From a phage, in the sequence record PV808484.1: a stretch of DNA of 64,000 nucleotides. One strand, 5' to 3'. Below are positions 10,003 through 59,241 of the stretch, one piece after another. The first letter of the stretch is position 1. Every line of letters starts with the position of its first letter. Below the pieces are notes generated by a model. It searched no databases and had not been told where the DNA came from. It saw only the letters and a list, made by a program, of their open reading frames with translations. Made by a program: the position numbers and the translations under genes.

Positions 10003-10069
10003 TCTCCCTCCTTAAAATATTTCTAAAGTCTTAATTTGTTAATACTGTACCACAAATTAATTGTTTTGT

Positions 10070-44105: not shown

Positions 44106-45083
44106 ATGGCAGCACCAAAATCATGGGAACAATATAAAGAAGAGTGTATACCAATAGCAGAGAGTAAGCAAATCCAAATCTTAGGATGGACGGGACAATG
44201 GAAAGGGGGCCACACAAAACTTGATTTGTTGTGCCATTGTGGTTATAAATGGGATACTACAAGTATTAACAGTTTTAAATGTGGTAGCGGTTGTCCACAA
44301 TGTAAGAGGGAGAAACAAACAATGTCCGACGATCAACATATTGCAGGTTTCTTTTCTACAGGGAAATTTAAGGAAGGCACTATCTTCACTAACACAGGAA
44401 CACGGGGTAAAGGATGTAGGCATATTACCTGGATGGTTGAATGTCCTGTTTGCTCTCATGATGAATATGTTCAAGCAGGTGTTTGTGATGGTAAATTTTA
44501 CTCTAAAGGACATCGCCTTAAACAAGGGTATATTCCGTGTCGTTGTGGGAAATATCAGTATACAGAAGACCAGATCACCTATAGGGTAAAAAAGGAAGTA
44601 GAAGGGAAAGGGTATGTCTGGGTAGATTGGATTACCAAACCCTCTTCTATAGGTAAGTTTAAATATCTTTGTCTTGTGCATGGTGAGCAGATAGGGAGTG
44701 CTCGTAATTTATTAAGCCTCGGTCAAGGTTGTCCACAGTGTGCTGGTCATAGTCAACAGCAATTATATATTAATATTGTTAAAGATAATGATATTATAGT
44801 TGCTCTTAAGTTTGGTATAGCTAAAGATAGCGATAGACGATTAAACGGTCAAAATAGCCGTAATCTGTTTTTTATGGAGCGTATTTGTTTATATGATTTT
44901 AGCACAGTGAAACAATGTAAGGCTGCTGAAAGAGCTATAAAGAAAAAATTAAAAACTGGTATTTTAACGGCAAGAGAGTTGAAAGATGGTTATACAGAAA
45001 CAGTAAGTGTTTCTGATTTGGAAAATCTTCAAAAAATTATTACACAATATGGTGGCAAGTTAGTATACAGTAAGGAGGTGTAA
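44106..45083 (+). CDS. zinc-ribbon repeat protein, possible GIY-YIG-like (T5orf172-type) nuclease
   Basis: 325 aa; repeated G(S/Q)GCPQC units; C-terminal LYINIVKD...FGIAKDSDRR; low certainty. Confidence 0.4.
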   Translation: MAAPKSWEQYKEECIPIAESKQIQILGWTGQWKGGHTKLDLLCHCGYKWDTTSINSFKCGSGCPQCKREKQTMSDDQHIAGFFSTGKFKEGTIFTNTGTRGKGCRHITWMVECPVCSHDEYVQAGVCDGKFYSKGHRLKQGYIPCRCGKYQYTEDQITYRVKKEVEGKGYVWVDWITKPSSIGKFKYLCLVHGEQIGSARNLLSLGQGCPQCAGHSQQQLYINIVKDNDIIVALKFGIAKDSDRRLNGQNSRNLFFMERICLYDFSTVKQCKAAERAIKKKLKTGILTARELKDGYTETVSVSDLENLQKIITQYGGKLVYSKEV

Positions 45084-45635: not shown

Positions 45636-45849
45636 TATTTTGAAAATTTTTATTTTTATAAAAAGGGGTGTGGGTTTCATGTACGGAAATCCACCCTCTG
45701 AATAATATATCCAGAGTAAGTATTATTCTGTACTCTGTTAATAAATTATTTAATTTGTTTGTTGGATTATGATATCTGGTTTTTAAAAGGCATACTATCT
45801 CTTAACTACTACTTATAACAGAACAGTAAAATCATTTTTATAAAAAGGA

Positions 45850-46055
45850 CAAAATTATTTAAAGTTTTTACAGATTTTTGGGTACAAATTTTGAAAATGA
45901 AAAGTTCAAGTTTGGTCAAAATTATTTAAAGTTTTTGTACGTATTTCCATCCAGATTTTGAAAATGAAAAGTTCAATTTTTTAAAAATTCCCCAGTTTAT
46001 TTAAAGTTTTTTTGCCTTTTTCCGTAGAAAAATCAAAAATGAAAAGTTCAATTTC
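45850..46055. repeat. three tandem ~67-bp direct repeats
   Basis: unit TATTTAAAGTTTTT ... TTTGAAAATGAAAAGTTCAA recurs at about 45856, 45923 and 45989. Confidence 0.6.
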
Positions 46056-46072
46056 GTGTTTTTATAGGTATG

Positions 46073-46190
46073 CGTATGATAATCATTCTCATTTGTAAAT
46101 GAGAATCATTATCATTTAATTATGTAAGTGATAATCATTCTCAGTAAGAGAATGAGAATCATTAGCAAATGAGAATTTTCTCATTTAGAG
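46073..46190. promoter_or_regulatory. cluster of three operator-like palindromes (Fur-box-like)
   Basis: GATAATCATTCTCATTT-GTA-AAATGAGAATCATTATC; GATAATCATTCTCA..GAGAATGAGAATCATTAGC; AAATGAGAATTTTCTCATTT. Confidence 0.5.
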
Positions 46191-46447
46191 AATAACGCGT
46201 AGGGGTGGTGTTTGTCTCGCGCTCCCGTGTCCCCTCGCCATACAATAAGAATAGCATAACCAACAACAAAAGCAAGCGATTATTTTTATCTTTACATTTC
46301 TTTACAAATTTATTTTAGACGAGCTACCGGCGATCAACCTTCCAACCAGTGTGCCCTGGTATGTTAGCCCCGCCTTTACGCCGTGGGGGTGGCGCTTCCT
46401 CTTCTGTATGTAAAACAGTATAAGCCCGATCCCTGGGCTTGTCAAGA

Positions 46448-46714
46448 TTATTTTTTGTTTTCTTGCCAGGATAGGACACCTAACCAAAAATACATGTCGC
46501 CCCGCGCCCCTGGCGGGATCTTGCTTTCCCCGCCGCCACTGCAAGCCCATAGATAACCATTTGCGAACGTATCAAAATGATCTATTTCTTCCACCTTATG
46601 ATCGCCCAGGTTGAGAACGGTTTCAACCTTTAAGCCCGTTGCGCTTGCTACCTGGTGCACCGTGCCGCCTTGCCAGCCTAATGAGTGCATGAGGTGTAAA
46701 GTAGTATTTGTCAT
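46448..46714 (-). CDS. hypothetical protein inside GC-rich island
   Basis: 88 aa from internal ATG 46714; opposite strand to neighbouring early genes; uncertain. Confidence 0.3.
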   Translation of the reverse strand: MTNTTLHLMHSLGWQGGTVHQVASATGLKVETVLNLGDHKVEEIDHFDTFANGYLWACSGGGESKIPPGARGDMYFWLGVLSWQENKK

Positions 46715-46824
46715 GGTATCGCCCTTTCTTTGATGTGCGCCCTGGTTGGCGCGGTAGAAAGATAATAGCCCCTTTCCTTTATAGATAGCAAGCAAAAAAG
46801 AAATGAAAAAAGATTAAAAAAGGG

Positions 46825-46853
46825 TTGACGTTCCTCACCTGGTAGCGTATTAT
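46825..46853 (+). promoter_or_regulatory. sigma70-like promoter
   Basis: TTGACG -17 bp- TATTAT; followed by strong SD and a 6-codon ORF (46907..46927). Confidence 0.45.
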
Positions 46854-46979
46854 TCATCTTGTCGAGGGGGGCGAGGCACAACGACAATAAACAAAAGGAG
46901 GGCGCAATGCAGGACGGGCAAAGGTGAGGATCTCCACAATCCACCGTCACAATAACATTACTTATAAAAGGTTGATAAC

Positions 46980-47075
46980 GATGATCAAGAAAGAAAACAG
47001 CTTGACGGTTGGAACGATTAACGCTATCATTTTCGCCGTTCCATTTTGGGTTGTAGTAGCGGTTATTATCTTTTA
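46980..47075 (+). CDS. small hydrophobic peptide (31 aa)
   Basis: MIKKENSLTVGTINAIIFAVPFWVVVAVIIF; AAAAGG upstream. Confidence 0.3.
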
Positions 47076-47130
47076 AAAATATTCTTGACAACGTTTTTTA
47101 ATCTGATAAGATGTATCACATAGGGCGGCA
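47075..47130 (+). promoter_or_regulatory. early promoter + 5' leader hairpin cassette
   Basis: TTGACA 47075-80, -10 TAAGAT, leader CACATAGG, hairpin GCGGC-AATAGT-GCCGC, ATG at 47165. Confidence 0.6.
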
Positions 47131-47164
47131 ATAGTGCCGCTCATAACAGAAGAGAGAAATAATC

Positions 47165-47437
47165 ATGGCATCATATAGCGCATCAATGATCGTAATGGGT
47201 ATCACTGGTAAACCTATGCGCGGTGGCGGATCTTTCGCTAACATCAATATTGATGGACGTTTATCCCTGGACGCAGCGATCACAGTGGCACGGGAAACAT
47301 TTAAAAAAGAATGTAATTTCAATAAACAAGATTATCTCGGTTTCGCTATTGAAAAAACCGCGCGATTTGTGGATTATAAAAGCCCGAAAATGATCGACAC
47401 TACACTAAAAGCGAAAGATGTAGCGTTTTTGCTTTAA
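47165..47437 (+). CDS. hypothetical early protein
   Basis: 90-aa ORF downstream of cassette. Confidence 0.5.
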   Translation: MASYSASMIVMGITGKPMRGGGSFANINIDGRLSLDAAITVARETFKKECNFNKQDYLGFAIEKTARFVDYKSPKMIDTTLKAKDVAFLL

Positions 47438-47447
47438 GACTTGACAC

Positions 47448-47508
47448 TGAAAAATAATTTGGTAATATATACCACATAAGGCGGGGAAATGGTTTCCCGC
47501 CAAGCCAT
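47448..47508 (+). promoter_or_regulatory. early promoter + 5' leader hairpin cassette
   Basis: TTGACA, -10 TAATAT, hairpin GGCGGGGAAA-TGG-TTTCCCGCC. Confidence 0.6.
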
Positions 47509-47526
47509 CAAAGAAAGGGTAACACA

Positions 47527-47889
47527 ATGAGCAAGCAAATCAATACTATCATGTTAAACCTGGTATCTTTCCGCGATGACGTGAAAAATCTTTCGCGTGA
47601 TGCAGTGGATGCACGGATCGAAAGCTATCGCACACAGATCGCAACATTACCGTTAAAACGTGATCAACATGCCGCTAATATGATGCTTGATGCTATGATT
47701 AAAAAGATGATTCAATGTGATCTTACTCTGGCTTATGAATATGCTGGCGATCTTTTTGTAACATATAACAAGCCCGTTCCAGGTATGAGCACCACGGAAG
47801 AATTGCATGCCTTAAATCTGCGACAAGATGCATGGGATAACATGCGCCGTGTTATGGTATGGGTAGAAAGCGGTAAAATTTACGAATAA
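47527..47889 (+). CDS. hypothetical early protein
   Basis: 120-aa ORF. Confidence 0.5.
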   Translation: MSKQINTIMLNLVSFRDDVKNLSRDAVDARIESYRTQIATLPLKRDQHAANMMLDAMIKKMIQCDLTLAYEYAGDLFVTYNKPVPGMSTTEELHALNLRQDAWDNMRRVMVWVESGKIYE

Positions 47890-47895
47890 AAACGG

Positions 47896-47949
47896 TTGAC
47901 ATTGCACTAAAACCTGATAAGCTATCTTAAAGCGGGAATAGTTCCCGCT
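47896..47949 (+). promoter_or_regulatory. early promoter + 5' leader hairpin cassette
   Basis: TTGACA, -10 TAAGCT, hairpin AGCGGGAA-TAG-TTCCCGCT. Confidence 0.55.
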
Positions 47950-47967
47950 TACATAGGATAAAACTTT

Positions 47968-48114
47968 ATGAAACAATATGTAATGAGTATTCACACCAAA
48001 AACGGCGCTACTGTTACGACTCCGGCACGGTTTGCACTTGTAAACCGTTGCAAGAGACTAAAACGAGAGCTAAAAAACAACCGTGCAACGGGCTTTAAAC
48101 GCTGGGGAGGATAA
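47968..48114 (+). CDS. small basic protein (48 aa)
   Basis: not in ORF track; ATG 47968 downstream of cassette. Confidence 0.4.
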   Translation: MKQYVMSIHTKNGATVTTPARFALVNRCKRLKRELKNNRATGFKRWGG

Positions 48115-48116
48115 TC

Positions 48117-48389
48117 TTGTTTTTTCTAAAAGTTTTTGATAATGTGATCGCTTTTGAACATGCTGCAACGTTCAACCTGGCGAGATACGCTATCAGGTTT
48201 AAAGATAATGTTTATCCCCGTGCTGGTGGCGGTTACACTATCTTTAATCATCGTAACGCTCAATTAACGGATATAACGAATCCAGATCCTGGAGTGTATC
48301 GCATAGGTTGGCTACCGTCAAAAGACGCGGCAAGCATGTTTAAGGTGTGTAAACTACTAACAGAAGAGGCGAACGAACATGGGGCGTGA
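48117..48389 (+). CDS. hypothetical protein (TTG start)
   Basis: 90 aa; TTG start with GGAGG 9 nt upstream. Confidence 0.35.
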   Translation: MFFLKVFDNVIAFEHAATFNLARYAIRFKDNVYPRAGGGYTIFNHRNAQLTDITNPDPGVYRIGWLPSKDAASMFKVCKLLTEEANEHGA

Positions 48390-48933
48390 ATATGTGATCC
48401 AGTCCTGGGTAAAGCATGATGCTGATGATCCGCGCATAATACCAGATGACATGATCGATCACATGGTAGGGTATAGCGGGGAGCAGATAGGAAATCGAGC
48501 GGCAAAGAGCAACGGTCACACAAAAACGCGATCCGTTCGCCCTGGTTGGCTGGCAAATGGTAACGCTGACATTGCAAGCGCCGCAGATCCAAGCGATGAC
48601 GCTAAAAATAATCCCTTATACAGCATTGATCCGGCTTTTAAGGTGTTAGAAGAGTATCCCGCTAAATTAGCCGCACTAGATAAAGCATATGAAGAAAAGC
48701 GCATGGCATGGACGGTATACAACACCGCTAAAATGGTGCTAGATGCAAAATTGATTAAAGCCCAGGAGAAGATCAATAAACTTGTTACCATAGCGCAAGA
48801 GGAAGACCAGGACGACCAGGAGGAAGAGGAAGAAATCATGCCTACCCTGGAAGAGGAAGAGATCCAGCCATACATGCCGACGGAAGAGGAAAAAAGACAA
48901 GCCCTAAAAAATTATGAAAATTGTGTTGTGTAA
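48379..48933 (+). CDS. hypothetical protein with acidic C-terminal tail
   Basis: 184 aa; E/D-rich C-terminus (EEDQDDQEEEEEIMPTLEEEE). Confidence 0.45.
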   Translation: MGREYVIQSWVKHDADDPRIIPDDMIDHMVGYSGEQIGNRAAKSNGHTKTRSVRPGWLANGNADIASAADPSDDAKNNPLYSIDPAFKVLEEYPAKLAALDKAYEEKRMAWTVYNTAKMVLDAKLIKAQEKINKLVTIAQEEDQDDQEEEEEIMPTLEEEEIQPYMPTEEEKRQALKNYENCVV

Positions 48934-48936
48934 GGC

Positions 48937-49042
48937 TTGACATATGCAAACAAGCCCCGTAATATGTACCACATAAAGCGGGGCAACGCCCCATAAGGTG
49001 AAATAAAAAATCACTTGACACCTGAAATCAGTAAGCTATAAT
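48937..49042 (+). promoter_or_regulatory. tandem early promoters
   Basis: TTGACA/TAATAT with hairpin GGGGC-AAC-GCCCC, then second TTGACA -16- TATAAT. Confidence 0.55.
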
Positions 49043-49079
49043 GCTTATATAGATTGAAACATTACTAAGGAATAAAAGC

Positions 49080-49259
49080 ATGGCTATTATTGCAAAGACT
49101 GAGATCGTAGGTTTAGATTCTATCATCCTGGCATATGAGGAAGCTATAGAAATGTATGTGGTTTCCTATGGTGATTATATCCGTGAATATAAATCTATTG
49201 ATCTAGCTTTTGAATGCTATATTCGCCAGGTCAATAAAGCCTATGATGATTATCGTTAA
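49080..49259 (+). CDS. small hypothetical protein (59 aa)
   Basis: not in ORF track; ATG 49080 with AAGGA upstream. Confidence 0.45.
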   Translation: MAIIAKTEIVGLDSIILAYEEAIEMYVVSYGDYIREYKSIDLAFECYIRQVNKAYDDYR

Positions 49260-49278
49260 AAGTTTTAGTCTTGTGCTA

Positions 49279-49307
49279 TTGACAACGAACGATAGTGCAA
49301 GCATAAT
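49279..49307 (+). promoter_or_regulatory. sigma70-like promoter
   Basis: TTGACA -17- CATAAT. Confidence 0.5.
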
Positions 49308-49354
49308 AACTTTTATCGGGAATACTCCTAACTAATCAAAAGAGATTAAAGACT

Positions 49355-49720
49355 ATGGCTAAAAATATCAATGTTTCTGCTTATGCTACCCTGGCTAACA
49401 CTGCTAAAATTGAACTATCCAGCATTGAAGCGGTACATATTAGCGCCCGTCGCTGGTTTCAAAAGTCTTATGGTAACACTTATTTCTCTTTGATGGTTGA
49501 CGTTGAGATCGGCGGTAAACTGATTGAAGTCGTTAACGTTCCGTTTCACTATGGCTACGGGGATCATTTTGATACCGTTGCCCTAGAAGAGTTTAGCAAG
49601 GTTATCAACCTGGAAGGTAAAGAATTTTCAAATTATGCCTACCTTTCCCGTTTTTGCCGTGATAATGGGATCGCTGTATACAGTCATGCAAGCGATGTTA
49701 AACGTAAAAAAGATTTATAA
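49355..49720 (+). CDS. hypothetical early protein
   Basis: 121-aa ORF. Confidence 0.5.
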   Translation: MAKNINVSAYATLANTAKIELSSIEAVHISARRWFQKSYGNTYFSLMVDVEIGGKLIEVVNVPFHYGYGDHFDTVALEEFSKVINLEGKEFSNYAYLSRFCRDNGIAVYSHASDVKRKKDL

Positions 49721-49726
49721 AAAGCA

Positions 49727-49898
49727 TTGACAGCACGAATAAAAAGCGTAAAATGTTTCATATCAGGACGGGGAACGAAGTAACACCCCGTTAAGTAGCC
49801 CAGGAGTAAGACACACGAAAAACTCCCCTGATAAAATAGTTTGACAATGGTTTCTAATAACGTATAATACTTACATCGAGAGCGGGAACACTTCCCGC
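49727..49898 (+). promoter_or_regulatory. tandem early promoters, each with leader hairpin
   Basis: TTGACA/TAAAAT + ACGGGG..CCCCGT hairpin; TTGACA/TATAAT + GCGGGAA-CAC-TTCCCGC. Confidence 0.55.
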
Positions 49899-49923
49899 CT
49901 CACTGAAAAAAGAGATTAACATC

Positions 49924-50163
49924 ATGGCTAAATCTAAAATGTTCTTAGGTCACAAAAACAAAACTCATTGGAATGTAAGCCTTTGGATCAACAACGATGA
50001 AGGTTTTTATAATCTTGCGCGTGAATTTATCGCAGCTAACACCAATAAGAATGACGCAGCGCGTGATATGATGTTATTTCTTGAAAGTATGGATCAAGAT
50101 AAAACGCCAGACGGATTCAAGTTCAGTAAAACCGCGATCCGTGCCGCTATGGTTGGAATGTAA
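49924..50163 (+). CDS. hypothetical early protein
   Basis: 79-aa ORF. Confidence 0.5.
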   Translation: MAKSKMFLGHKNKTHWNVSLWINNDEGFYNLAREFIAANTNKNDAARDMMLFLESMDQDKTPDGFKFSKTAIRAAMVGM

Positions 50164-50258
50164 AGGAGACATAAAAATGAAACATCGTTCGACCTATCTC
50201 ACAAAACGTTTTAGCTTAGATCATAAATTGGGCTATTACGGAAGAAATAGAAAATAAT

Positions 50259-50317
50259 TTGACAACGTTTTAAATTAGTGTAAGATATATCACATAGGGC
50301 GGGAAATGGTTTCCCGC
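50259..50317 (+). promoter_or_regulatory. early promoter + 5' leader hairpin cassette
   Basis: TTGACA, -10 TAAGAT, hairpin GCGGGAAA-TGG-TTTCCCGC. Confidence 0.6.
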
Positions 50318-50340
50318 CAAATCAAAGAAAGGTTATCATT

Positions 50341-50568
50341 ATGGCTATCATTATTGTTCGCGTATCCGGTACGGTTGGAAGCTCCCAGGTAGTAGCAGTT
50401 ATCACAGAGAAGAAAGGGGATGATCTTCACTCTTCCTTGAATAGTTGGGCGGTCGCTAATTTTGGTCAGTGGTCGAGCGTCGAGTATATCGAATCCTACC
50501 AGGTGCCGACGATTAGCCTAACCGATTTAAATGTTGATCGCTTGTTGTGCCTGGATGGATTAAACTAA
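50341..50568 (+). CDS. hypothetical early protein
   Basis: 75-aa ORF. Confidence 0.5.
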   Translation: MAIIIVRVSGTVGSSQVVAVITEKKGDDLHSSLNSWAVANFGQWSSVEYIESYQVPTISLTDLNVDRLLCLDGLN

Positions 50569-50576
50569 AAATAATC

Positions 50577-50632
50577 TTGACAAGATAACTAAAATCAGTA
50601 AAATGTAATGCATAGGGCGGCAATAGTGCCGC
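50577..50632 (+). promoter_or_regulatory. early promoter + 5' leader hairpin cassette
   Basis: TTGACA, -10 TAAAAT, hairpin GCGGC-AATAGT-GCCGC. Confidence 0.6.
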
Positions 50633-50655
50633 TCATAGTAAGAGAGATTATCAAA

Positions 50656-50871
50656 ATGGCTAATATCCGCACACTGTTAAAAAATGCAAGTCAAGTTTTA
50701 TTTTCAGATGACGAGTATTTCAACAAAGACATTACAGGCGTGAAAAATTTAAAAGACGTGAAGGATGTTATCGGTATCCGTGGATCTTTACGTAAAGGTG
50801 ACATATACGGTAACAAGGTGCAATATAAACTGTCAAAAGATTATGATTTTACTTTGACAATTATCAATTAA
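50656..50871 (+). CDS. hypothetical early protein
   Basis: start moved from track 50608 (inside leader hairpin) to ATG 50656. Confidence 0.5.
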   Translation: MANIRTLLKNASQVLFSDDEYFNKDITGVKNLKDVKDVIGIRGSLRKGDIYGNKVQYKLSKDYDFTLTIIN

Positions 50872-50882
50872 GGGATCACAAA

Positions 50883-51041
50883 ATGAAAACTTGCCAATGT
50901 GGTAAAAAGTCTATCTCTGGTTTAAAACGTGGCGTTGCTCTTTGTCAATATCACTATAACGCTCAAACGTGGGGTAAGCAGTGGGCGGATCAGATGGAAG
51001 AGGCAAAGAAAGAAAATATAAAAGTAGTTGCAAAGAAATAA
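50883..51041 (+). CDS. small Cys-containing protein (52 aa)
   Basis: not in ORF track; CQCG...CQYH. Confidence 0.4.
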   Translation: MKTCQCGKKSISGLKRGVALCQYHYNAQTWGKQWADQMEEAKKENIKVVAKK

Positions 51042-51066
51042 AAATAAAGTAAACTGTATTCATCAA

Positions 51067-51088
51067 GGCGGTGGAATAGCCCACCGCC
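51067..51088 (+). other. GC hairpin in intergenic leader
   Basis: GGCGGTGG-AATAGC-CCACCGCC, no -35 upstream. Confidence 0.4.
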
Positions 51089-51112
51089 TAACAAAGAGAA
51101 GAGGAAAACATC

Positions 51113-51283
51113 ATGATCACTTTCGCTACCCGTGAAGCCGCTCGCAACGTTGCACGTAAAGTTAACGCCGCCAACCTGGGCGCTACGTTTAAAGCCCCGG
51201 TGAAAGATGAGTCAGGAAAATGGATCTTCCCTGGTCTGCGTCACGCTGATAAGCTGGGAACATTAACGTTAAAAAATAAATAA
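51113..51283 (+). CDS. small hypothetical protein (56 aa)
   Basis: not in ORF track; ATG 51113, GAGGAAAA upstream. Confidence 0.4.
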   Translation: MITFATREAARNVARKVNAANLGATFKAPVKDESGKWIFPGLRHADKLGTLTLKNK

Positions 51284-51290
51284 GATCCGC

Positions 51291-51349
51291 TTGACAGTAG
51301 CATGATTTATAAGTAAAGTAACAACAACGGCGGGAAATGGTTTCCCGCC
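51291..51349 (+). promoter_or_regulatory. early promoter + 5' leader hairpin cassette
   Basis: TTGACA, -10 TAAAGT, hairpin GCGGGAAA-TGG-TTTCCCGC. Confidence 0.6.
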
Positions 51350-51369
51350 ATCAATAAAGAGATAAGATT

Positions 51370-51729
51370 ATGAAATCAGTAAAAGCAATCAAAACTTACA
51401 TTGTATCGGCTATTTCTTTTGAAGGTACTACAACCGAAAAAGAAAAAATCACCGAACTGATGCGCCGTTTTAATTCTGAATACTGGTATCCCGATAATCA
51501 AAAACGTTACAATTATAACGTGATCAAGGCGATAGCCTCATGGTTACAAGGTTTACCGTCAGACATTAACATCGCCTTTGATTATAACGAGATCGATCAC
51601 TTGTTAATTGAATGGAAGTACATAAAAGAAACAAGCAAAGAAACAACCGTTACCCGTGAGCGGGAAAATTATTGGTTATATATTGCAAGCATGATCGTAA
51701 TCCTGGCAAAACAGCATAACGTGGCGTAA
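51370..51729 (+). CDS. hypothetical early protein
   Basis: 119-aa ORF. Confidence 0.5.
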   Translation: MKSVKAIKTYIVSAISFEGTTTEKEKITELMRRFNSEYWYPDNQKRYNYNVIKAIASWLQGLPSDINIAFDYNEIDHLLIEWKYIKETSKETTVTRERENYWLYIASMIVILAKQHNVA

Positions 51730-51744
51730 TTAAGAGGAAGAAAC

Positions 51745-51882
51745 ATGAACGCATCACAGCAGATCGAAAAATTCAACCGCAGCAAGGCGCGTAAAGATTG
51801 GAACGAAGAGATCACCAAAAAAGGCGACAAGCGGAACAAAACAAAAAGAGATCGCAGCACAAAAAGACACTGGAACGAATAA
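51745..51882 (+). CDS. small basic protein (45 aa)
   Basis: not in ORF track; AAGAGGAAG upstream. Confidence 0.35.
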   Translation: MNASQQIEKFNRSKARKDWNEEITKKGDKRNKTKRDRSTKRHWNE

Positions 51883-51887
51883 CAAAA

Positions 51888-51912
51888 AAGGGCGCAATAA
51901 GCGCCCTTTTAG
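51888..51912 (+). terminator. rho-independent terminator
   Basis: AAGGGCGC-AATAA-GCGCCCTT then TT. Confidence 0.6.
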
Positions 51913-52000
51913 CTTATATAGAGGCTTGTTACCCATAGGCAATGGTAACGCCAGGGCAAGCCTATAAACAACGTTAGACGGCTTTACAGGAGCTTTAAAA

Positions 52001-52183
52001 ATGAGATTAGAAGAAATAAGCAAGGCACTAGCCCAGGGGCAAAGGTTATGCGCCAGATATCGTGATCAATATGGCTTCATAACTAGCGGCGTGATCCTGG
52101 GGATTGAAGGCAATAAGATTTTTATTGACACGTTGAAAAACGTTGTATATAGTGACAATATAATCTCAATAAAACATATATGA
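52001..52183 (+). CDS. hypothetical protein
   Basis: 60-aa ORF. Confidence 0.4.
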   Translation: MRLEEISKALAQGQRLCARYRDQYGFITSGVILGIEGNKIFIDTLKNVVYSDNIISIKHI

Positions 52184-52191
52184 GGCAAGAA

Positions 52192-52593
52192 ATGAAAAAC
52201 TTATTGATCGCTGGTTTACTCTCTTTTGGTATGGTTGGAACATCTAGCGCGGCGATATCCTCCACAGTAGCAGAATTAAGCGCCGTTGATGCAATGGAAA
52301 ACGTCATGCTTATTAATAATGCGATCCCCGATGAAATCATGGAGGATTCACACATGATCGCTTATGGTGCTGTTACACAACTAACGGCAAAAATAGATAA
52401 ATCTATTGTTAATGGCTTAAATGAAGATGTACCATGTGAAATTATTACCAGTGTGCTTACTACTCAAAATTTTACGCCGTGGTTAAAAAGTATTCAAAAA
52501 GTACACAGTACAGCCGCAGATCGTAGCAATGAAAAACTAGTGTCAGCACTTGCAACGTATACCCTAGCAAAATGCACCGAGATAAAAGATTGA
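52192..52593 (+). CDS. secreted hypothetical protein
   Basis: start moved to ATG 52192 (GAGG upstream); signal peptide MKNLLIAGLLSFGMVGTSSAA. Confidence 0.5.
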   Translation: MKNLLIAGLLSFGMVGTSSAAISSTVAELSAVDAMENVMLINNAIPDEIMEDSHMIAYGAVTQLTAKIDKSIVNGLNEDVPCEIITSVLTTQNFTPWLKSIQKVHSTAADRSNEKLVSALATYTLAKCTEIKD

Positions 52594-52618
52594 CAACATA
52601 GAAAGCACGTTATAAGAT
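52590..52618 (+). promoter_or_regulatory. sigma70-like promoter
   Basis: TTGACA ... TATAAGAT upstream of 52641 gene. Confidence 0.45.
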
Positions 52619-52640
52619 ACACACAACAAAGGAGAACTAC

Positions 52641-52943
52641 ATGAACGGCATAGCTAAAACGTTTTTTCTTTTTTCTGGTGTAAATGATCCATCAATAAAA
52701 GTCGATAGTGTAAAAGAAAACAATACTATCACCGCTAAATTGTTTCAAGATGAAACAAATAACGTGCTAATCATTAATCTTAAAGAAATAACTAAAGGTT
52801 ATTATACTATTGCTTACCATGCAATCTATCATGCTGGTACTAGTGAGGAAGTGCAAACAAGCAACAACGAAAGCGCGGCGCTACCTGGTGATCTGGTGCT
52901 GGGCGTTATCAGTTTAATTGTCAATGATTTTTTTAAGGAGTAA
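52641..52943 (+). CDS. hypothetical protein
   Basis: 100 aa; AAGGAGAA upstream. Confidence 0.45.
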   Translation: MNGIAKTFFLFSGVNDPSIKVDSVKENNTITAKLFQDETNNVLIINLKEITKGYYTIAYHAIYHAGTSEEVQTSNNESAALPGDLVLGVISLIVNDFFKE

Positions 52944-52947
52944 AACC

Positions 52948-53043
52948 ATGCCCTATTTACATTTATTTTTCGGTATCTTATTGACAGGATCTTTTTTCTT
53001 CTGTATGCTTGTTTCTATTGTAAACCACGTTTTAAGACATTAA
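52948..53043 (+). CDS. small hydrophobic peptide (31 aa)
   Basis: not in ORF track; AAGGAG upstream. Confidence 0.3.
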   Translation: MPYLHLFFGILLTGSFFFCMLVSIVNHVLRH

Positions 53044-53052
53044 GGAAACAGC

Positions 53053-53172
53053 ATGAAAATTATTCCCGTACAATATAGCGTAATAAATCCAGCATACGAG
53101 GAAGGAAGGAAAACAAGCATGGCTTTATGTTGTATTGCTACTATAGCCATGTTGTTATGCATTGTGTTTTAA
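53053..53172 (+). CDS. small peptide with hydrophobic C-terminus (39 aa)
   Basis: not in ORF track; AAGGAAACAGC upstream. Confidence 0.3.
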   Translation: MKIIPVQYSVINPAYEEGRKTSMALCCIATIAMLLCIVF

Positions 53173-53201
53173 TAGGTTTTATAGTTGTACGCTTTAAAGG
53201 C

Positions 53202-53253
53202 TTGACAATTTTTTGTTATGCTTTAAACTATATCTTGAAAACGGCAAAGGCCG
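53202..53253 (+). promoter_or_regulatory. early promoter + short leader hairpin
   Basis: TTGACA, -10 TAAACT, hairpin CGGC-AAAG-GCCG. Confidence 0.5.
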
Positions 53254-53272
53254 CAAACAAAAGGGTAAAATT

Positions 53273-53596
53273 ATGAAATCTGTGATCGGTGTTTATTTGG
53301 ATAACTCTGATTTTTTCTATCATCGCGCTCGTTTCCTTGATGCGATTGAAATGATAGAATCAGGCTTTAAAGAGTATCGCCTTGCACATGATGACCTGGA
53401 AGCATTACAGGGCAATAGTGTTTTTACATTGCAAGCTAAAGCACTATGCAAAAGCCGGATCGACATTGCGAGCAAAAAGATAGAACGCGGCATGTCCTGG
53501 TTGCGCACCGCAGAAATCAACATGGGGCAATGGTACGGCGAAAACTTAGAAAATAAACATGCTTTTGTCAATGTAGAAAATATTGAAGATTATTGA
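53273..53596 (+). CDS. hypothetical early protein
   Basis: start moved from track 53213 (inside promoter) to ATG 53273. Confidence 0.5.
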   Translation: MKSVIGVYLDNSDFFYHRARFLDAIEMIESGFKEYRLAHDDLEALQGNSVFTLQAKALCKSRIDIASKKIERGMSWLRTAEINMGQWYGENLENKHAFVNVENIEDY

Positions 53597-53658
53597 TTGA
53601 CAGCACACCTAACGGGTAGTATATTGTATCTCATAGAGCGGGGAAATGGTTTCCCCGC
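53597..53658 (+). promoter_or_regulatory. early promoter + 5' leader hairpin cassette
   Basis: TTGACA, -10 TATATT, hairpin GCGGGGAAA-TGG-TTTCCCCGC. Confidence 0.6.
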
Positions 53659-53678
53659 CATCAATAAAGAGATAAGCT

Positions 53679-53963
53679 ATGAAGATCACAAAAGCACTTT
53701 CCAACTATGCAGCACGTCGCGGATTATGTTTAACCGTTGAAAATTTAGGGAAAGAAGATTTTTTGTGCTTTTGGGAGCTTGAGAATGATAATGAGTGGAT
53801 CTTCTCTTATTCTATCTGCGAAGATCAAAACGGTTGTTTATTAACCTGGCGCGGTAATATCTATCTACCGGAAGAAATCAAAGAAGAATTACCAGGCACG
53901 ATCATGACTGAGAAACAGCTTAAGGAAGTGATCAATTTTGTAGGGCAAAACATTAAAAAATAA
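53679..53963 (+). CDS. hypothetical early protein
   Basis: 94-aa ORF. Confidence 0.5.
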   Translation: MKITKALSNYAARRGLCLTVENLGKEDFLCFWELENDNEWIFSYSICEDQNGCLLTWRGNIYLPEEIKEELPGTIMTEKQLKEVINFVGQNIKK

Positions 53964-53964
53964 T

Positions 53965-54021
53965 TTGACAGCAGAAAAACAACGTAGTAAAGTTTATCAC
54001 ATAGGGCGGCAATAGTGCCGC
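53965..54021 (+). promoter_or_regulatory. early promoter + 5' leader hairpin cassette
   Basis: TTGACA, -10 TAAAGT, hairpin GCGGC-AATAGT-GCCGC. Confidence 0.6.
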
Positions 54022-54044
54022 TCATAACAGAAGAGAAACAAATC

Positions 54045-54215
54045 ATGATCCCGACTATGTTTTATGTATCGCGCAAAGGTCACAATATTTTTTGGTCTGA
54101 AGATTTAAATGAAGCCATGACGTTTGCCCGTGATCGTGTTGCTATCGGTGGCGTTAACATTACTGTAACCGATGAAAATGGCATTGAATACTATAACGGC
54201 GACGATGAAGAGTAA
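54045..54215 (+). CDS. hypothetical early protein (56 aa)
   Basis: start moved from track 54015 to ATG 54045. Confidence 0.45.
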   Translation: MIPTMFYVSRKGHNIFWSEDLNEAMTFARDRVAIGGVNITVTDENGIEYYNGDDEE

Positions 54216-54260
54216 TTAACAAGGCGGGGAGTATTCCCGCCGTCAATAAAGGATAATATC

Positions 54261-54398
54261 ATGAAAACTTTCAACGCAACAGCATCAACAATTGGTTATA
54301 TTATCACCGTGCAAGCTATTGATCTAGTAGCTGCAACAAACAAGATTAAAAACATGATCCCTGTAGGCAGTGATTTTTCCGTTTGGGAAGTAAAATAA
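54261..54398 (+). CDS. small hypothetical protein (45 aa)
   Basis: not in ORF track; preceded by GGCGGG..CCCGCC hairpin and AAAGGA. Confidence 0.4.
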   Translation: MKTFNATASTIGYIITVQAIDLVAATNKIKNMIPVGSDFSVWEVK

Positions 54399-54401
54399 AT
54401 C

Positions 54402-54463
54402 TTGACAGTGATTTGTTATTTGATAAGATGTACTACGTAGGGCGTGGCAATAAGGCAACGCCC
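54402..54463 (+). promoter_or_regulatory. early promoter + 5' leader hairpin cassette
   Basis: TTGACA, -10 TAAGAT, hairpin GGGCGT..ACGCCC. Confidence 0.55.
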
Positions 54464-54484
54464 CACATCAGAAAGGGAAAGATT

Positions 54485-54721
54485 ATGACTATAGCAACAG
54501 TATTAACCGCCGTTAAAACCGCCGAATCATCCGGCTTGCATGTTGAGATTATAGATCAACCAGGTGGCGATCTCCTTGTCCAGGTTTACCCGCCGAAAGT
54601 AGGGGATGATTATTATTGGTGCTATTCTGATACGTTCGAACAAGTAGACACGAAAGCGATCACGGCTTTTATTTTAAAAGCTATTGAAGAAAATAACTTT
54701 CATTATAACATCAATCAATAA
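54485..54721 (+). CDS. hypothetical early protein
   Basis: start moved from track 54383 to ATG 54485 (AAAGGGAAAG upstream). Confidence 0.5.
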   Translation: MTIATVLTAVKTAESSGLHVEIIDQPGGDLLVQVYPPKVGDDYYWCYSDTFEQVDTKAITAFILKAIEENNFHYNINQ

Positions 54722-54763
54722 ACCATAAGCGGGGCAGTAACGCCCACTAATGAGGGTAAAATC

Positions 54764-54868
54764 ATGTTAGAGAAAATTTTCACGGTTGTAGTAGTGGGCC
54801 TGGCGTTATCGGTTGGAGTGGTTGCAACTATGGCTAACATGATTCTATCTTCTCACGGTATTGGATAA
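54764..54868 (+). CDS. small hydrophobic peptide (34 aa)
   Basis: not in ORF track; GAGGGTAAAATC upstream. Confidence 0.3.
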   Translation: MLEKIFTVVVVGLALSVGVVATMANMILSSHGIG

Positions 54869-54878
54869 GGTGAATCAA

Positions 54879-55094
54879 ATGATCACGAATAAGACAGGTA
54901 AAACAGAATTTTTACGCGGCTTGCAAATAGGTAAACCTGAGATCTGGCATTGCACTAAATCCGCGCATAATGAAATGAAAGATTTTACCGCTACTTTACA
55001 ACGTGTTAAAATATCTATCACACAGAAAAAAGCCTTGTTAGTAGTAGAAAACGAGATCCCGCAAACTATTATTATTGTCGAGCGTACAGCATGA
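54879..55094 (+). CDS. hypothetical protein
   Basis: start moved from TTG 54861 to ATG 54879. Confidence 0.45.
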   Translation: MITNKTGKTEFLRGLQIGKPEIWHCTKSAHNEMKDFTATLQRVKISITQKKALLVVENEIPQTIIIVERTA

Positions 55095-55477
55095 AAACAG
55101 AAATCATTATTGAAATCATCAACGGTTATAAAGAAGCCTTTATTTTTGCTGAATCCGCCAGGGATCATGAAGGTAATTTTATTGATAACTTGACTGATTA
55201 TGATTTTTCAGATCAAGCCCATCAGCGGATCATTCATGACGTAGCGGCTTATTGTGATGCCAATGATGCCGCTATCTCTGAGGCAATGAGCGACGGCGCA
55301 ACAGCCAACCAGATCGGGAATGATTTACATTTTACCCGTAATAGTCACGGCGTAGGCTTTTGGGATCGCCCTGAAATATACACTACTAACACCGCCAACC
55401 GCTTAACTAATGCAGCTAAATTGATGCCATCGGTGCATGCTTACATTGGTGAAGATAATTTGATTTATATTGAATAA
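55091..55477 (+). CDS. hypothetical protein
   Basis: 128-aa ORF. Confidence 0.5.
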   Translation: MKTEIIIEIINGYKEAFIFAESARDHEGNFIDNLTDYDFSDQAHQRIIHDVAAYCDANDAAISEAMSDGATANQIGNDLHFTRNSHGVGFWDRPEIYTTNTANRLTNAAKLMPSVHAYIGEDNLIYIE

Positions 55478-55483
55478 AAAGTA

Positions 55484-55541
55484 TTGACACCGATCCCCAA
55501 TATGGTACTATTTACCACGTAGGCGGGAAATGGTTTCCCGC
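55484..55541 (+). promoter_or_regulatory. early promoter + 5' leader hairpin cassette
   Basis: TTGACA, -10 TACTAT, hairpin GCGGGAAA-TGG-TTTCCCGC. Confidence 0.6.
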
Positions 55542-55565
55542 CAGGTAATCAAAAAGGTAAATACT

Positions 55566-55955
55566 ATGCGCAACCTGGTTTCTGTTTCTAACGTTGAAAA
55601 ATTTCAATCTTTACAGGGTATCGTTAACAACGTAGCGCCTTTTTTAGTCAACGGCTTGATTGCAAAGATGAAAAATAAACATCATGCGGCATGGTCTGCT
55701 TACTGCTTTGATAATGATGAAAAAGCGGCTGAAATGATGTTAAATATGCTGTTAGACAGTGTAGAATCATCTTTACCGGAAAACATCGCAGAAGAGATCA
55801 CCTATCGTTATAATATGGCGATCACTTACCAGGAGGTTGCGCAATTTAATATGATGGACGATGACGAACAACAGGATCAGGAAATTTTCTGGGAGTATGC
55901 AGATCGTCAATCGGCTTTTGATGAAAAGTTAGCGATGTATTATAACGAATATTAA
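55566..55955 (+). CDS. hypothetical early protein
   Basis: start moved from track 55530 to ATG 55566. Confidence 0.5.
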   Translation: MRNLVSVSNVEKFQSLQGIVNNVAPFLVNGLIAKMKNKHHAAWSAYCFDNDEKAAEMMLNMLLDSVESSLPENIAEEITYRYNMAITYQEVAQFNMMDDDEQQDQEIFWEYADRQSAFDEKLAMYYNEY

Positions 55956-55970
55956 TACACGGTAAAAGAA

Positions 55971-55996
55971 AGGGGCGCACTAAGCGCCCTTTTTTG
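55971..55996 (+). terminator. rho-independent terminator
   Basis: GGGGCGC-ACTAA-GCGCCCT followed by TTTTTTG. Confidence 0.65.
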
Positions 55997-56341
55997 TATT
56001 CTTTTTTCACAATGGAAGCGACACGTAAAGAATAGGCGTAAAAGGTGGCGTAAAACCATCTAAAACCGACTGTAACCGCTTAAACAAGGCAGGGATGATT
56101 AATCCCCTTACCAGGATGAAAAAGCTGTTAGAGAGCTATTCATAGCGTTTAAAGCACATAGGAAATAATTTGCTTTTTATCTTGCCTTTTATCCTGCTTT
56201 TGATTATTATTATGGAACGGGCGGCACCTGGGGACAGGGGAAGATAATCACCGGAAGATCCCGCTATATATTGATAGCTAATACCTATTAAACAACAAAA
56301 CATCAAAGGGATAAACTATCAAATCTTTACAATCCTACCTA

Positions 56342-56400
56342 TTGACACACGATCACCCTTATACTAATATGTATCCCGTAGGCGGGAAATGGTTTCCCGC
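56342..56400 (+). promoter_or_regulatory. early promoter + 5' leader hairpin cassette
   Basis: TTGACA, -10 TAATAT, hairpin GCGGGAAA-TGG-TTTCCCGC. Confidence 0.6.
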
Positions 56401-57109: not shown

Positions 57110-57123
57110 ATAACATTTCATAC

Positions 57124-57150
57124 CAGGGCGCACAAAGCGCCCTTTCTTTT
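57124..57150 (+). terminator. rho-independent terminator
   Basis: GGGCGC-ACAAA-GCGCCC followed by TTTCTTTTT. Confidence 0.65.
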
Positions 57151-57354
57151 TACCTAAATAAAGATGATAGCTTTTACCTATCAAAAACATTCACCGAAAA
57201 AAGTGAATAGATCGCGGTATCGAGCTAATCAAGGAGCAGATGAACAACCATACCATGAAGATCATAAGGCGCTTACAACGTGTTTTAAACCGCTTATTTT
57301 TAATTTCTCCATGTAACTATCTGGCAAAAACAGCCTTTTTCGTGTCTTTCCTCT

Positions 57355-57435
57355 TAAGTGATAATCATTCTTATTTATAGCTGATTATTTATGCAATAAA
57401 CTGCATAATGCAATAATGATAATCATTCTTAACTT
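57355..57435. promoter_or_regulatory. pair of Fur-box-like sites
   Basis: GTGATAATCATTCTTA at about 57358 and AATGATAATCATTCTTA at about 57414. Confidence 0.45.
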
Positions 57436-57439
57436 ATGA

Positions 57440-57780
57440 CCATCTAACCTATAAAATAATAAGTTATCTAACTAAATTAAAGCTAATTATTTCACCTTTA
57501 TTTATAACTTACTGTTACTATCTCATTGATAACCTTATATTAAACAACAATAACTAATATAAATCATTACTAAGCTAAATATAATCTATCTAACCTTTAA
57601 AACTATAACTATAATCTATCGAATTGTTGCACAAAGTAACTATTAAATTGTTAGTAACATTACTAAATAATTCATATCCTATCTATTTATGATCTAATCT
57701 TTACTTTCCTATCTATTACCTAAATAATCCTATCATACAGTTACCATTTCATGTAATAATCATTTCATACAATAACTATA
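57440..57780. repeat. AT-rich iteron-like short repeats
   Basis: recurring CTATCTAACCT / CTATCTAT / ATAACTATAA words in 340 bp without coding potential. Confidence 0.45.
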
Positions 57781-57837
57781 ACAAGAAATATAATTCGCAA
57801 GCGTATCATTAGCAGCCTATGCCGGACACATAGGCGG

Positions 57838-57985
57838 CTAATAATAACGCAACTACACACCCCACATAATAACCATCACCGATAGTTATTATTTGTGCTT
57901 ATGTAGCTTGCAACAATTGCAAGCGCAACAATATACATGGTATATTGTATCCCTTACATTGTTGCGGTGCGTTATTATTAGCTAA
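57838..57985. repeat. long-range inverted repeat with internal palindrome
   Basis: GCTAATAATAACGCAAC ... GTTGCGGTGCGTTATTATTAGC ~110 bp apart; internal CTTGCAACAATTGCAAG. Confidence 0.45.
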
Positions 57986-58282
57986 TGTTTGGAACATTGG
58001 CTATAATATAAGCTAAATAATAAGCTATTCAATAATAAACATAATGAATAATGACACTGATGATCATAATGCGCCACCTTCCAGGGGGCGCTATGTGAAC
58101 ACAAAGAAATCTTTCTTGTCAAGAAAAATATTAACACTATTGCGCAAAATTATTTATGTCTGAATAGATGATTTTTCATACTATTGTTATTATTTATCGG
58201 CCCTAACTATTGCCTATTTGTTGAGCCTACTTTCTTAAAAGCGCAATAAATCAGAATTATCTTGATTTTTAGGGTGTTTTAT

Positions 58283-58305
58283 AGTATAGAAAATATGCAA
58301 ATGAT
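58283..58305. promoter_or_regulatory. Fur-box-like site (17/19 match to GATAATGATAATCATTATC)
   Basis: GCAAATGATAATCATTATC read directly. Confidence 0.5.
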
Positions 58306-58482
58306 AATCATTATCAGCTATCTTCCACGGGTGGCACTATTTCACGCAGGATCATTTCATTTGGCAAGGTGTATATAGATGTTTAGACTTGCCAAGCCAT
58401 TGATTTACTTAGAATTTATCTGTTTTGTTGTGAGTAGTACCTTTCTTGCTCAGAAAATAATCAAAAGTCTTATAAGTCATTG

Positions 58483-58515
58483 AATGATAATGCAAATGAT
58501 AATTATTCTCATTGA
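58483..58515. promoter_or_regulatory. overlapping Fur-box-like sites
   Basis: GAATGATAATGCAAATGATAATTATTCTCATTGAT. Confidence 0.45.
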
Positions 58516-58632
58516 TATTTGAGGGGGACGGTCGGCAGAAATCGGGGGGCGCTGAAAATCGCGTTAAGCACCTCTCGCAAGCGAGCAGTATTTTGCGGCA
58601 AGTTATTGATATTATTGGCTTTACGCTTATGG

Positions 58633-58730
58633 AAAGGGGGTGTGTCGAAATAAATCGGGTATACCGGAAAATTTTTGTGGCATAGATATTTATTTGTCTA
58701 TATTATGTACAAAGGGGTGTGTTAAAAATA
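58633..58730 (+). repeat. two copies of AAAGGGGTGTGT-containing ~35-bp direct repeat upstream of paralogue array
   Basis: AAAGGGGGTGTGTCGAAATAAATCGGGTATACC and AAAGGGGTGTGTTAAAAATATTAGGTATATA; third core copy at 45661. Confidence 0.45.
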
Positions 58731-58872
58731 TTAGGTATATATAGAATAATTGATAGGGAAATCCTATACTAATTCCTCCATTAATGATGTTTCTATGTTG
58801 CTGTTCTTGTAACAGATGAAAAGACGCTGTATGATGTGTAGCATGAAACGTAAATTTATAAAGGAGTCTGAT

Positions 58873-59241
58873 ATGTGTGTTCCTCTTAGCAGTCCTCTGC
58901 TGTTAGAATTTTACAAAGCATGGATGGAAGATCATTCCTCAATGCATCGTGAGAATGTTGGTTTGTGTAATTGCCTTATGGATTACCTGGCAACCACTAT
59001 GTCAAAGAAAAAGCCTACGGAAGAAGATATAGAATATTTCAAGATGGTTCGTAGCAAAACGCTGAAAGAGATGAAACTGCAATTCACGTGTGCTGGGCTA
59101 TCCTCCTTCCTACCCTTTAATTATGATCTTCTATGTTATGAAGATGAAGGTAAGACACATTCTTGCCATACCAACCCAAAGAGATTGCAGTGGGTGAAAG
59201 ATCGTATTGCCGATTCATGTTTGGTGTTAGGGGGGTGGTAA
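58873..59241 (+). CDS. paralogue family protein 1 (Cys/His small protein)
   Basis: start moved to ATG 58873 (AAGGAG upstream); FYKAW..GLCNCL.DY and HTNPKRLQWVKDRI. Confidence 0.5.
   Translation: MCVPLSSPLLLEFYKAWMEDHSSMHRENVGLCNCLMDYLATTMSKKKPTEEDIEYFKMVRSKTLKEMKLQFTCAGLSSFLPFNYDLLCYEDEGKTHSCHTNPKRLQWVKDRIADSCLVLGGW

Follow-up and report, generated by a model that had tools for sequence, protein, structure and literature searches.

A 64,000-nucleotide stretch of phage DNA (sequence record PV808484.1), referred to below as the window, carries in two non-coding gaps a set of palindromic boxes whose motif is that of the Fur box of Escherichia coli, and these boxes are the subject of this analysis. 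With 96-99% identity to dozens of Justusliebigvirus genomes over the 1.6 kb around the palindromes, the window phage is a phi92-like E. coli myophage of that genus (subfamily Stephanstirmvirinae) and virulent. Its best annotated near relative is EmilieFrey (MZ501063), where the record position minus 32,000 approximates the window position; for scans of a whole genome (~146 kb), segments of this near-identical complete genome were added to the window. The first gap (region 1; 45636-47164, 1.5 kb) separates a NADAR/YbiA-like gene from a series of small genes on the plus strand, and the second (region 2; 57111-58873) holds further Fur-type sites, such that the arrays flank a terminal early-gene block of ~12 kb between the two gaps. 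Along this block, from 47085 to 56342, run ~19 near-perfect host-type plus-strand promoters (TTGACA, 16-18 nt, TAnnnT), about one per small gene, the first of them at 47085..47112 on the plus strand (TTGACA-N16-18-TAnnnT).

The region 1 array occupies 46073..46190, where an earlier note on this DNA, made from the sequence alone, had placed palindromes resembling Fur boxes. A repeat search located three pairs of inverted arms there, in agreement with that note: 19-nt arms at 46076-46094 and 46097-46115 (95% complementary), and further overlapping arms at 46100-46118/46125-46143 (89%) and 46129-46143/46153-46167 (87%). Scored with the matrix described below, the array consists of 19-mers at 46075 (19.6 bits), 46098 (22.3 bits), 46127 (14.0 bits) and 46151 (16.1 bits), with partners offset by 6 bp at 46069 and 46145, and of a proximal copy at 46168-46186 that is degenerate through a 1-nt deletion; the window thus has a damaged proximal copy and four extra copies farther left. 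Region 2 contains four boxes, i.e., box A at 57357 (16.4 bits), box B at 57409/57415 (11.4/14.5 bits), with A and B together spanning 57357..57433, box C at 58294..58318, formed by overlapping 19-mers at 58294/58300 (15.8/15.2 bits) and including a perfect 7-1-7 motif, TGATAATCATTATCA, at 58302-58316, and box D at 58489..58513, formed by overlapping 19-mers at 58489/58495 (16.7/21.3 bits). Pairs offset by 6 bp are found at 46069/46075, 46145/46151, 57409/57415, 58294/58300 and 58489/58495, and overlapping sites with this offset are a described trait of Fur site clusters (PMC2189734). The recurring sites listed in the earlier note are all Fur-type boxes; two of its positions (57358 and 57414) were exact, whereas the other two (58283 and 58483) fall ~10-20 nt to the left of the cores, and the 17/19 identity to the Fur consensus that it reported is present at 58297-58315.

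The boxes are far more numerous than chance would give, and their placement is not random. Allowing up to two mismatches, the 7-1-7 pattern (TGATAATNATTATCA / TGATAATnATTATCA) matched the window nine times against 0.82 expected, a count that none of 100 shuffles reached. All nine matches (46077, 46100, 46129, 46153, 46973, 57359, 57417, 58302, which is perfect, and 58497) are inside the two gaps. The 19-mer consensus GATAATGATAATCATTATC with up to three mismatches gave five window matches versus 0.03 expected, and a stricter pattern, TGAKAATNATTMTCA with at most one mismatch, had no occurrence outside the two gaps over the ~146-kb genome. A matrix scan of the window placed no Fur box on any of the ~19 canonical early promoters.

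Region 2 contains a physical end of the genome. Several records of related phages start or stop within it, and Salmonella phage UAB_1 annotates a direct terminal repeat of 343 bp, which maps by alignment to 58224..58566 of the window. Short direct terminal repeats have been reported for UAB_1 (PMC11350853), and a repeat of 342 bp was determined in BME3 by PhageTerm (PMC12210895). Boxes C and D are within the repeat and therefore at both ends of the virion DNA, while boxes A and B are ~250-300 nt past the terminator of the last right-end gene (57125-57143), and the right terminal repeat follows them at a distance of ~0.8 kb. In phAPEC8, where the flanks have diverged to 70-78% identity, boxes A, C and D persist at 17.3, 17.8 and 21.3 bits. 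No strong or conserved promoter overlies the region 2 boxes, only weak A+T-rich matches, and the first gene after the terminal repeat starts ~360 nt past box D.

To compare the phage boxes with Fur sites of the host species, we derived a matrix de novo from nine promoter regions under Fur control in E. coli K-12 (fepA-fes, fepD-entS, fepB-entC, fhuA, fecA, cirA, tonB, ryhB and fur), rather than from the classical consensus or a published list; the text of PMC2189734 gives no site sequences. Gibbs sampling with no prior motif on these nine promoters yielded AATGATAATCATTATCATT. With the resulting matrix, the phage boxes scored 14.0-22.3 bits, compared to 5.6-19.0 bits for the E. coli sites by leave-one-out scoring; 14 window positions reached at least 12 bits versus 1.6 expected, and the three best window sites (22.3, 21.3 and 19.6 bits) exceeded 18.4 bits, the maximum in 200 simulated 64-kb sequences. 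In the reciprocal test, a matrix built only from eight window boxes was run over 45.5 kb of E. coli DNA, and its nine best matches all fell within those same promoter regions. Together, the regions account for 4.1% of the DNA scanned. The agreement extends to tolerated variants, such as GAGAAT for GATAAT, and the ryhB site (AATAATAATCATTCTCATT) is one base apart from the commonest phage box (AATGATAATCATTCTCATT), i.e., 18 of 19 positions are identical. Because the matrix tests agreed in both directions, the motif of the phage boxes is, at the level of sequence, identical with that of the Fur box in E. coli. The earlier note had spoken of a resemblance and proposed that the sites be scored with a matrix; the scores of 14-22.3 bits make for a stronger case than it had claimed.

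The phage itself has no Fur homologue by tblastn with E. coli Fur as the query (best E = 2.6), and host Fur is therefore very probably the ligand of these boxes. It is also by far the most economical candidate, because phages that are unrelated to each other, with no detectable tested protein in common, have the motif in common (see below) and because the matrix test worked both ways.

The arrays are kept in relatives of both Stephanstirmvirinae and Vequintavirinae. DNA to the right of the region 1 palindromes (~46289-46414) is 80-87% identical in Phapecoctavirus and in three genera of the Vequintavirinae, namely Seunavirus (PVP-SE1), Certrevirus (CR8 and CB7) and Mydovirus (KB57 and Mydo). 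Six of these genomes, together with 15 IMG/VR contigs located by an invariant core pattern of this DNA, supplied 20 distinct homologous loci from four genera. Fur-type boxes are found to the left of the core in 19 of the 20, with one to six boxes in each, and additional boxes in relatives are often spaced by ~29 bp. The offset of the proximal box is nearly fixed at -185 to -198 from GTTAGCCCC, with a value of -235 in locus L026, which carries an insertion. The sites are also concentrated in Cronobacter phage CR8: 10 of the 11 sites of at least 13 bits in its 149 kb lie between 81.0 and 94.0 kb. This homologous segment of 13 kb contains the counterpart of region 1, two sites between genes and another large gap, at which gene orientation changes. 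Since CR8 has 50.8% G+C, chance A+T-rich matches are rare in it.

The same motif is present beyond these subfamilies. The exact 19-mer AATGATAATCATTCTCATT is found in at least 120 IMG/VR contigs among the matches listed, which are of varied sizes and base compositions and often carry arrays; host sequence may be present in some of them. Fur-box arrays thus seem to be widespread in viral contigs, as judged from their sequences. In an unrelated IMG/VR contig of 41 kb (3300025631_000015), whose ends overlap, a single intergenic region contains (GAGAAT)7 and, after it, GAGAATGAGAATCATTATC three times, in loci of 49% G+C.

A weak cross-match also led to the Tequintavirus EC122, whose non-coding DNA at 9.57-10.3 kb contains two DnaA boxes, a Fur-type array and then GTGCAAATCCGACAA repeats. 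The EC122 array (record positions 9854-10017) scores 22.3, 20.6 and 18.3 bits and has offset partners, and the non-coding stretch is matched by 642 phage records. In T5 itself (AY692264), the array at 9552-9715 falls in the final 200 bp of the left-hand terminal repeat (9749 bp), within the annotated injection stop signal and beside the major nick, and dmp contains a perfect 7-1-7 box at 233-247 nt from the left end. By tblastn, none of 14 pre-early proteins of T5 (A1, A2, dmp and 11 others) had a homologue in the window phage or CR8 at E of 1 or less, noise aside.

We examined the surroundings of the region 1 array by searching for promoter-like sites that occupy one alignment column across the 20 region 1 sequences. 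Two sites only were conserved, P1- and P2-, both on the minus strand. P1- (46417..46445, minus strand; TTGACA-17-TATACT), of the sigma-70 type, is present in 20 of 20 homologues, with its hexamers kept and its spacer variable. P2- is a sigma-70-like promoter (46248..46275, minus strand) that reads TTGCTT-16-TATTCT here and is stronger elsewhere (TTGCAA-17-TATATT in Vequintavirinae, TTGACT-17-CATAAT in locus L054); 15 of the 20 sequences keep it at 8 or more of 12 matches, the window's own copy having 7/12. From an inferred P2- start at ~46241, the edge of the array (46186) lies at approximately +55, and the array is ~220 nt downstream of P1-. No conserved plus-strand promoter was found over the region 1 boxes in these sequences. 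Because the conserved promoters are on the minus strand only and upstream of the array, the array sits downstream of predicted, conserved leftward non-coding transcription and off any strong or conserved promoter.

The conserved core itself is a candidate structured RNA of ~125 nt, placed at 46289..46410 on the minus strand, downstream of P1-. Its consensus fold contains one compensatory pair as well as G-U pairs, which would be A-C mismatches on the opposite strand and so favour the minus strand. In the P2- leader, likewise, the 5' stem is kept through changes from G-C to G-U, and these pairs would be A-C mismatches on the plus strand. The core has no Rfam match, and its annotation in relatives is either absent or consists of inconsistent small open reading frames. 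P1- would transcribe the core, which is a candidate for a new phage non-coding RNA, and a conserved minus-strand locus of this kind, common to two phage subfamilies, is apparently unannotated. Over the window as a whole, Rfam returned no family at the gathering threshold, the two gaps giving only chance-level matches (E of 0.2 or more), and no tRNA or tmRNA gene was detected. Roadblock-assisted termination at the P2- leader hairpin was considered and rejected on grounds of spacing, as a polymerase stalled at the proximal box would not yet have reached the 3' arm of the hairpin.

Immediately to the left of the array, three direct repeats of 67-75 bp (45834..46054) share an iteron-like core, AAATTATTTAAAGTTTTT ... 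GAAAATGAAAAGTTCAA, and related iteron-like repeats (AAAGTTTAAATAGTTT and AAATGTTTAAATAATTTTGG) are found at the same place in the IMG/VR locus L102. These repeats may be sites for a phage protein or part of an origin. Features that would suit an origin at region 1 are the three repeats and the two minus-strand promoters pointing at them; there are no DnaA boxes and no change in GC skew. DnaA boxes (TTWTNCACA) matched the window 9 times versus 11.7 expected, with none in either gap. Back to back with P1-, between 46463 and 46520, is a plus-strand promoter-like site (TTGCCA-17-AAAAAT here and TTGACC-17-CACAAT in CR8), which is followed at 46501-46517 by a short G+C-rich hairpin with a T-rich tail. 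The 1.5-kb gap may hold several small transcription units.

Of the genes next to the gaps, ten open reading frames were compared with Pfam and PHROGs, and they were NADAR, CapR/T5orf172-like, gp30.8-like or of unknown function, with none iron-related or DNA-binding. The open reading frame at 44106-45083, just upstream of the region 1 gap, combines a CapR homology domain with a weak match to T5orf172 and with matches to endonuclease PHROGs; its homologue in phage alia is longer (1398 nt versus 978 nt), and it may be a variable gene of the homing-endonuclease type. The phage codes for ribonucleotide reductases of class I and of class III. Under the name 'Campylobacter phage', with C. jejuni as the stated host, there are five records of 146,366 bp (e.g., MG065689 and MG065656) that are 94-97% identical to the window in both non-coding regions, and their assignment to C. 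jejuni looks doubtful.

The explanation that we prefer, and to which as a whole we assign a probability of roughly 50%, takes the boxes as genuine Fur operators, i.e., arrays of high-affinity sites for host Fur, and gives them a role away from promoters; the binding of Fur by itself is very probable. Iron-loaded dimers of host Fur would bind in a cooperative manner, covering ~120 bp of region 1 and, in region 2, four stretches of ~25 bp each, two of them within the terminal repeat. Because the boxes sit on no recognisable promoters, bound Fur would form an iron-dependent nucleoprotein block or boundary at hubs of non-coding DNA rather than act as at a classical promoter operator. At region 1, the array would gate read-through of P1- and P2- transcripts into the iteron-like repeats; at the genome ends, the boxes would mark the terminal repeat and, together with the region 1 array, bracket the ~12-kb early block; and replicated genomes would titrate Fur as a by-product. 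We regard a cis-acting role away from promoters as evenly balanced between true and false, and read-through gating specifically as a tentative proposal with the odds against it. Titration of host Fur by the boxes is plausible. The earlier note had suggested that the boxes could link early gene expression to iron, and the anatomy opposes this, since no strong or conserved sigma-70 promoter is overlapped and the ~19 early promoters are free of boxes.

Several observations weigh against this operator reading. The evidence for it comes from sequence. Locus L033 keeps the core and P1- and has lost P2- and every box, and the module is therefore dispensable. The proximal box, which is the best kept elsewhere, is broken by a 1-nt deletion in the window phage, and P2- is weak there (7/12). 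The variation in box number from one to six would fit a dosage or decoy role equally well as a positional one. The GC skew has no switch at region 1, where it tracks gene orientation only, and thus gives no sign of a replication origin there. Lastly, weak promoter-like matches (8-9/12) overlap some boxes and are compatible with a classical operator role, even though the overlap with the -35 and -10 elements of a repressed promoter that characterises classical Fur operators is not found at the phage boxes for any conserved promoter.

Among other explanations, it is possible, if unlikely, that the arrays have been selected as a sponge: hundreds of replicating genome copies, each with at least nine strong boxes, would titrate host Fur and thereby derepress host iron uptake and other Fur-repressed genes, feeding the iron-dependent ribonucleotide reductases. 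With scores of up to 22.3 bits, the boxes equal or surpass the nine sites scored in E. coli, they vary in number among relatives and are in non-coding DNA away from promoters, and the terminal repeat places two clusters twice on each virion DNA molecule; the presence of both class I and class III ribonucleotide reductase genes would suit this role as well. The logic is that of the Fur titration assay (FURTA), in which multicopy Fur boxes derepress the Fur regulon, as Stojiljkovic and colleagues reportedly described in 1994. A pure decoy, however, needs no set position, and across genera the proximal box is fixed relative to P2- and the core. T5, moreover, has the same arrays but degrades host DNA early, according to the annotation of its A1 gene, so that it would gain little from derepressing the genes of its host. 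Less probable than a sponge is a role for Fur as a host factor at DNA ends. When bound to the terminal repeat and to the inner edge of the early block, Fur would act in DNA entry, as a stop, anchor or ratchet like that at the T5 injection stop signal, or in concatemer cutting and packaging, by analogy with IHF at lambda cos. Several positions fit this role: boxes C and D are in the 343-bp repeat, ~70-290 nt from the genome end, the T5 boxes at 233-247 and 9552-9715 are similarly terminal, the latter inside the injection stop signal by the major nick, and the region 1 array, at ~12.4 kb (~8.4% of the genome) from the right end, recalls the T5 array that marks the ~8% of DNA transferred in the first step, while CR8 has the same bracket of ~13 kb. 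Yet the 8% parallel is possibly a coincidence, the arrays here are not accompanied by DnaA boxes as they are in T5, tblastn shows T5 A1 and A2 homologues to be absent, and arrays are also found in contigs with no evident terminus. Moreover, phi92-like and rV5-like phages are not known to inject their DNA in two steps.

Classical repression, in which Fur bound over weak promoters would restrict non-coding RNAs or the first genes after the repeat to times of iron scarcity, we consider improbable. It draws on weak promoter matches over boxes (TTCTCA-18-TATCAT on both strands at 46076-46115; GTGCCA-16-GATAAT at 58337-58310) and on alignments of Vequintavirinae, where the proximal box is between TTGAAT and cAGAAT, 18 nt apart. 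The RNA gene ryhB, which encodes a small RNA repressed by Fur, carries an almost identical box. These matches, however, reach only 8-9/12, are not kept across genera and are no commoner than in shuffled sequence; the strong early promoters are box-free, and the first gene after the repeat begins ~360 nt beyond box D. A still lower probability attaches to a phage-encoded dimeric DNA-binding protein as the ligand, be it origin-binding, partition-like or regulatory, whose likeness to Fur would be incidental or which would compete with Fur. Such a protein would make sense of arrays that adjoin iteron-like repeats, and the phage does encode several small putative DNA-binding proteins or transcription factors (e.g., bas61_0151 and bas61_0173-0175). 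The earlier note had allowed for a dimeric phage repressor of this kind, which has become less likely: the phage has no Fur homologue, the identical motif is found in T5-like phages and unrelated IMG/VR contigs, and 0 of the 14 T5 pre-early proteins has a homologue here. The hallmarks of a repressor-operator system are missing in that Pfam and PHROGs assign no DNA-binding domain to the genes flanking either gap and no conserved promoter overlaps the boxes, and an incidental likeness would hardly extend to tolerated variants such as GAGAAT for GATAAT. Very improbable, finally, is that the palindromes work as hairpins in RNA or DNA, be it as terminators or as processing sites, or that they are chance A+T-rich palindromes. 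They are palindromic, folding-based Rfam models match them weakly (E = 0.2-7), and they would be transcribed from P2- if read-through occurs; chance, however, is excluded by the pattern, consensus and matrix counts. The commonest box, TGATAATCATTCTCA, is an imperfect palindrome, and the asymmetry of T versus G between its half-sites is kept in many relatives; in a hairpin this would be a mismatch, so it is the sequence that is kept rather than the pairing.

The Fur box itself is known. Its occurrence as conserved off-promoter arrays in virulent phages, including their terminal repeats, and in common to three phage groups among which is T5, appears undescribed; full-text searches returned no literature that links Fur boxes with these phage genera, T5 repeats or virulent phages, although absence there is not proof. 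If host Fur does bind, infection by phi92-like, rV5-like and T5-like phages could follow the iron status of the host. Several such phages are used in therapy cocktails, and iron differs sharply between laboratory broth and iron-poor settings, e.g., urine, serum or the inflamed gut. That Fur is a previously unrecognised host factor for large virulent phages with terminal repeats (T5-like, phi92-like and rV5-like) is a doubtful, speculative extension, under which the arrays at the genome ends and at the inner border of the early block would make DNA entry, the transition from early to later stages or end processing dependent on Fur and iron.

Compared to the E. coli Fur regulon (e.g., ryhB, fhuA and fepB-entC), the phage has the same motif and the same clusters with a 6-bp offset, the 19-bp consensus GATAATGATAATCATTATC being also read as overlapping 7-1-7 or hexamer arrays. 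Chromosomal Fur sites of E. coli overlap the -35 and -10 elements of iron-regulated promoters, whereas the phage boxes overlap no recognisable strong promoter, form longer arrays (up to six boxes, often ~29 bp apart) and belong to the genome of a virulent phage, where some are within the terminal repeat. Shiga-toxin prophages, whose stx1 promoter is Fur-regulated, already provide an example of a Fur box on phage DNA by which a function that the phage carries is tied to host iron. There, a single box serves a toxin gene, carried as cargo by a temperate prophage, at its promoter, whereas here arrays occupy the non-coding control regions and terminal repeat of a virulent phage. FURTA offers a further likeness, in that multicopy boxes on a replicating element, like the copies of a phage genome, are expected to draw Fur off chromosomal operators; FURTA, however, is a laboratory cloning artefact, and exploitation of titration by the phage is hypothetical.

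The closest parallel in phages is Repeat Region 3 of T5, its injection stop signal, where the palindromes of T5 and EC122 are Fur-type boxes of the same kind, with scores that reach 22.3 bits. In both systems, boxes are found in the terminal repeat or in a long, repeat-rich non-coding region that edges a terminal early-gene block; in the window phage, the 343-bp repeat encloses boxes C and D, and the region 1 array is ~12.4 kb from the end. T5 alone has DnaA boxes and DRD repeats alongside and a repeat of ~10 kb with the pre-early genes A1 and A2, whereas the window phage has a repeat of 343 bp, no DnaA boxes in its gaps and no A1 or A2 homologues. A T5 preprint (Davison; 10.1101/866236) lists the palindromes palE-palJ and DRC, calls their function impossible to guess and does not discuss Fur. 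If the reading of these boxes as sites for host Fur is true, it would provide a concrete candidate ligand for the palindromes at the injection stop signal of T5, which have long lacked an explanation.

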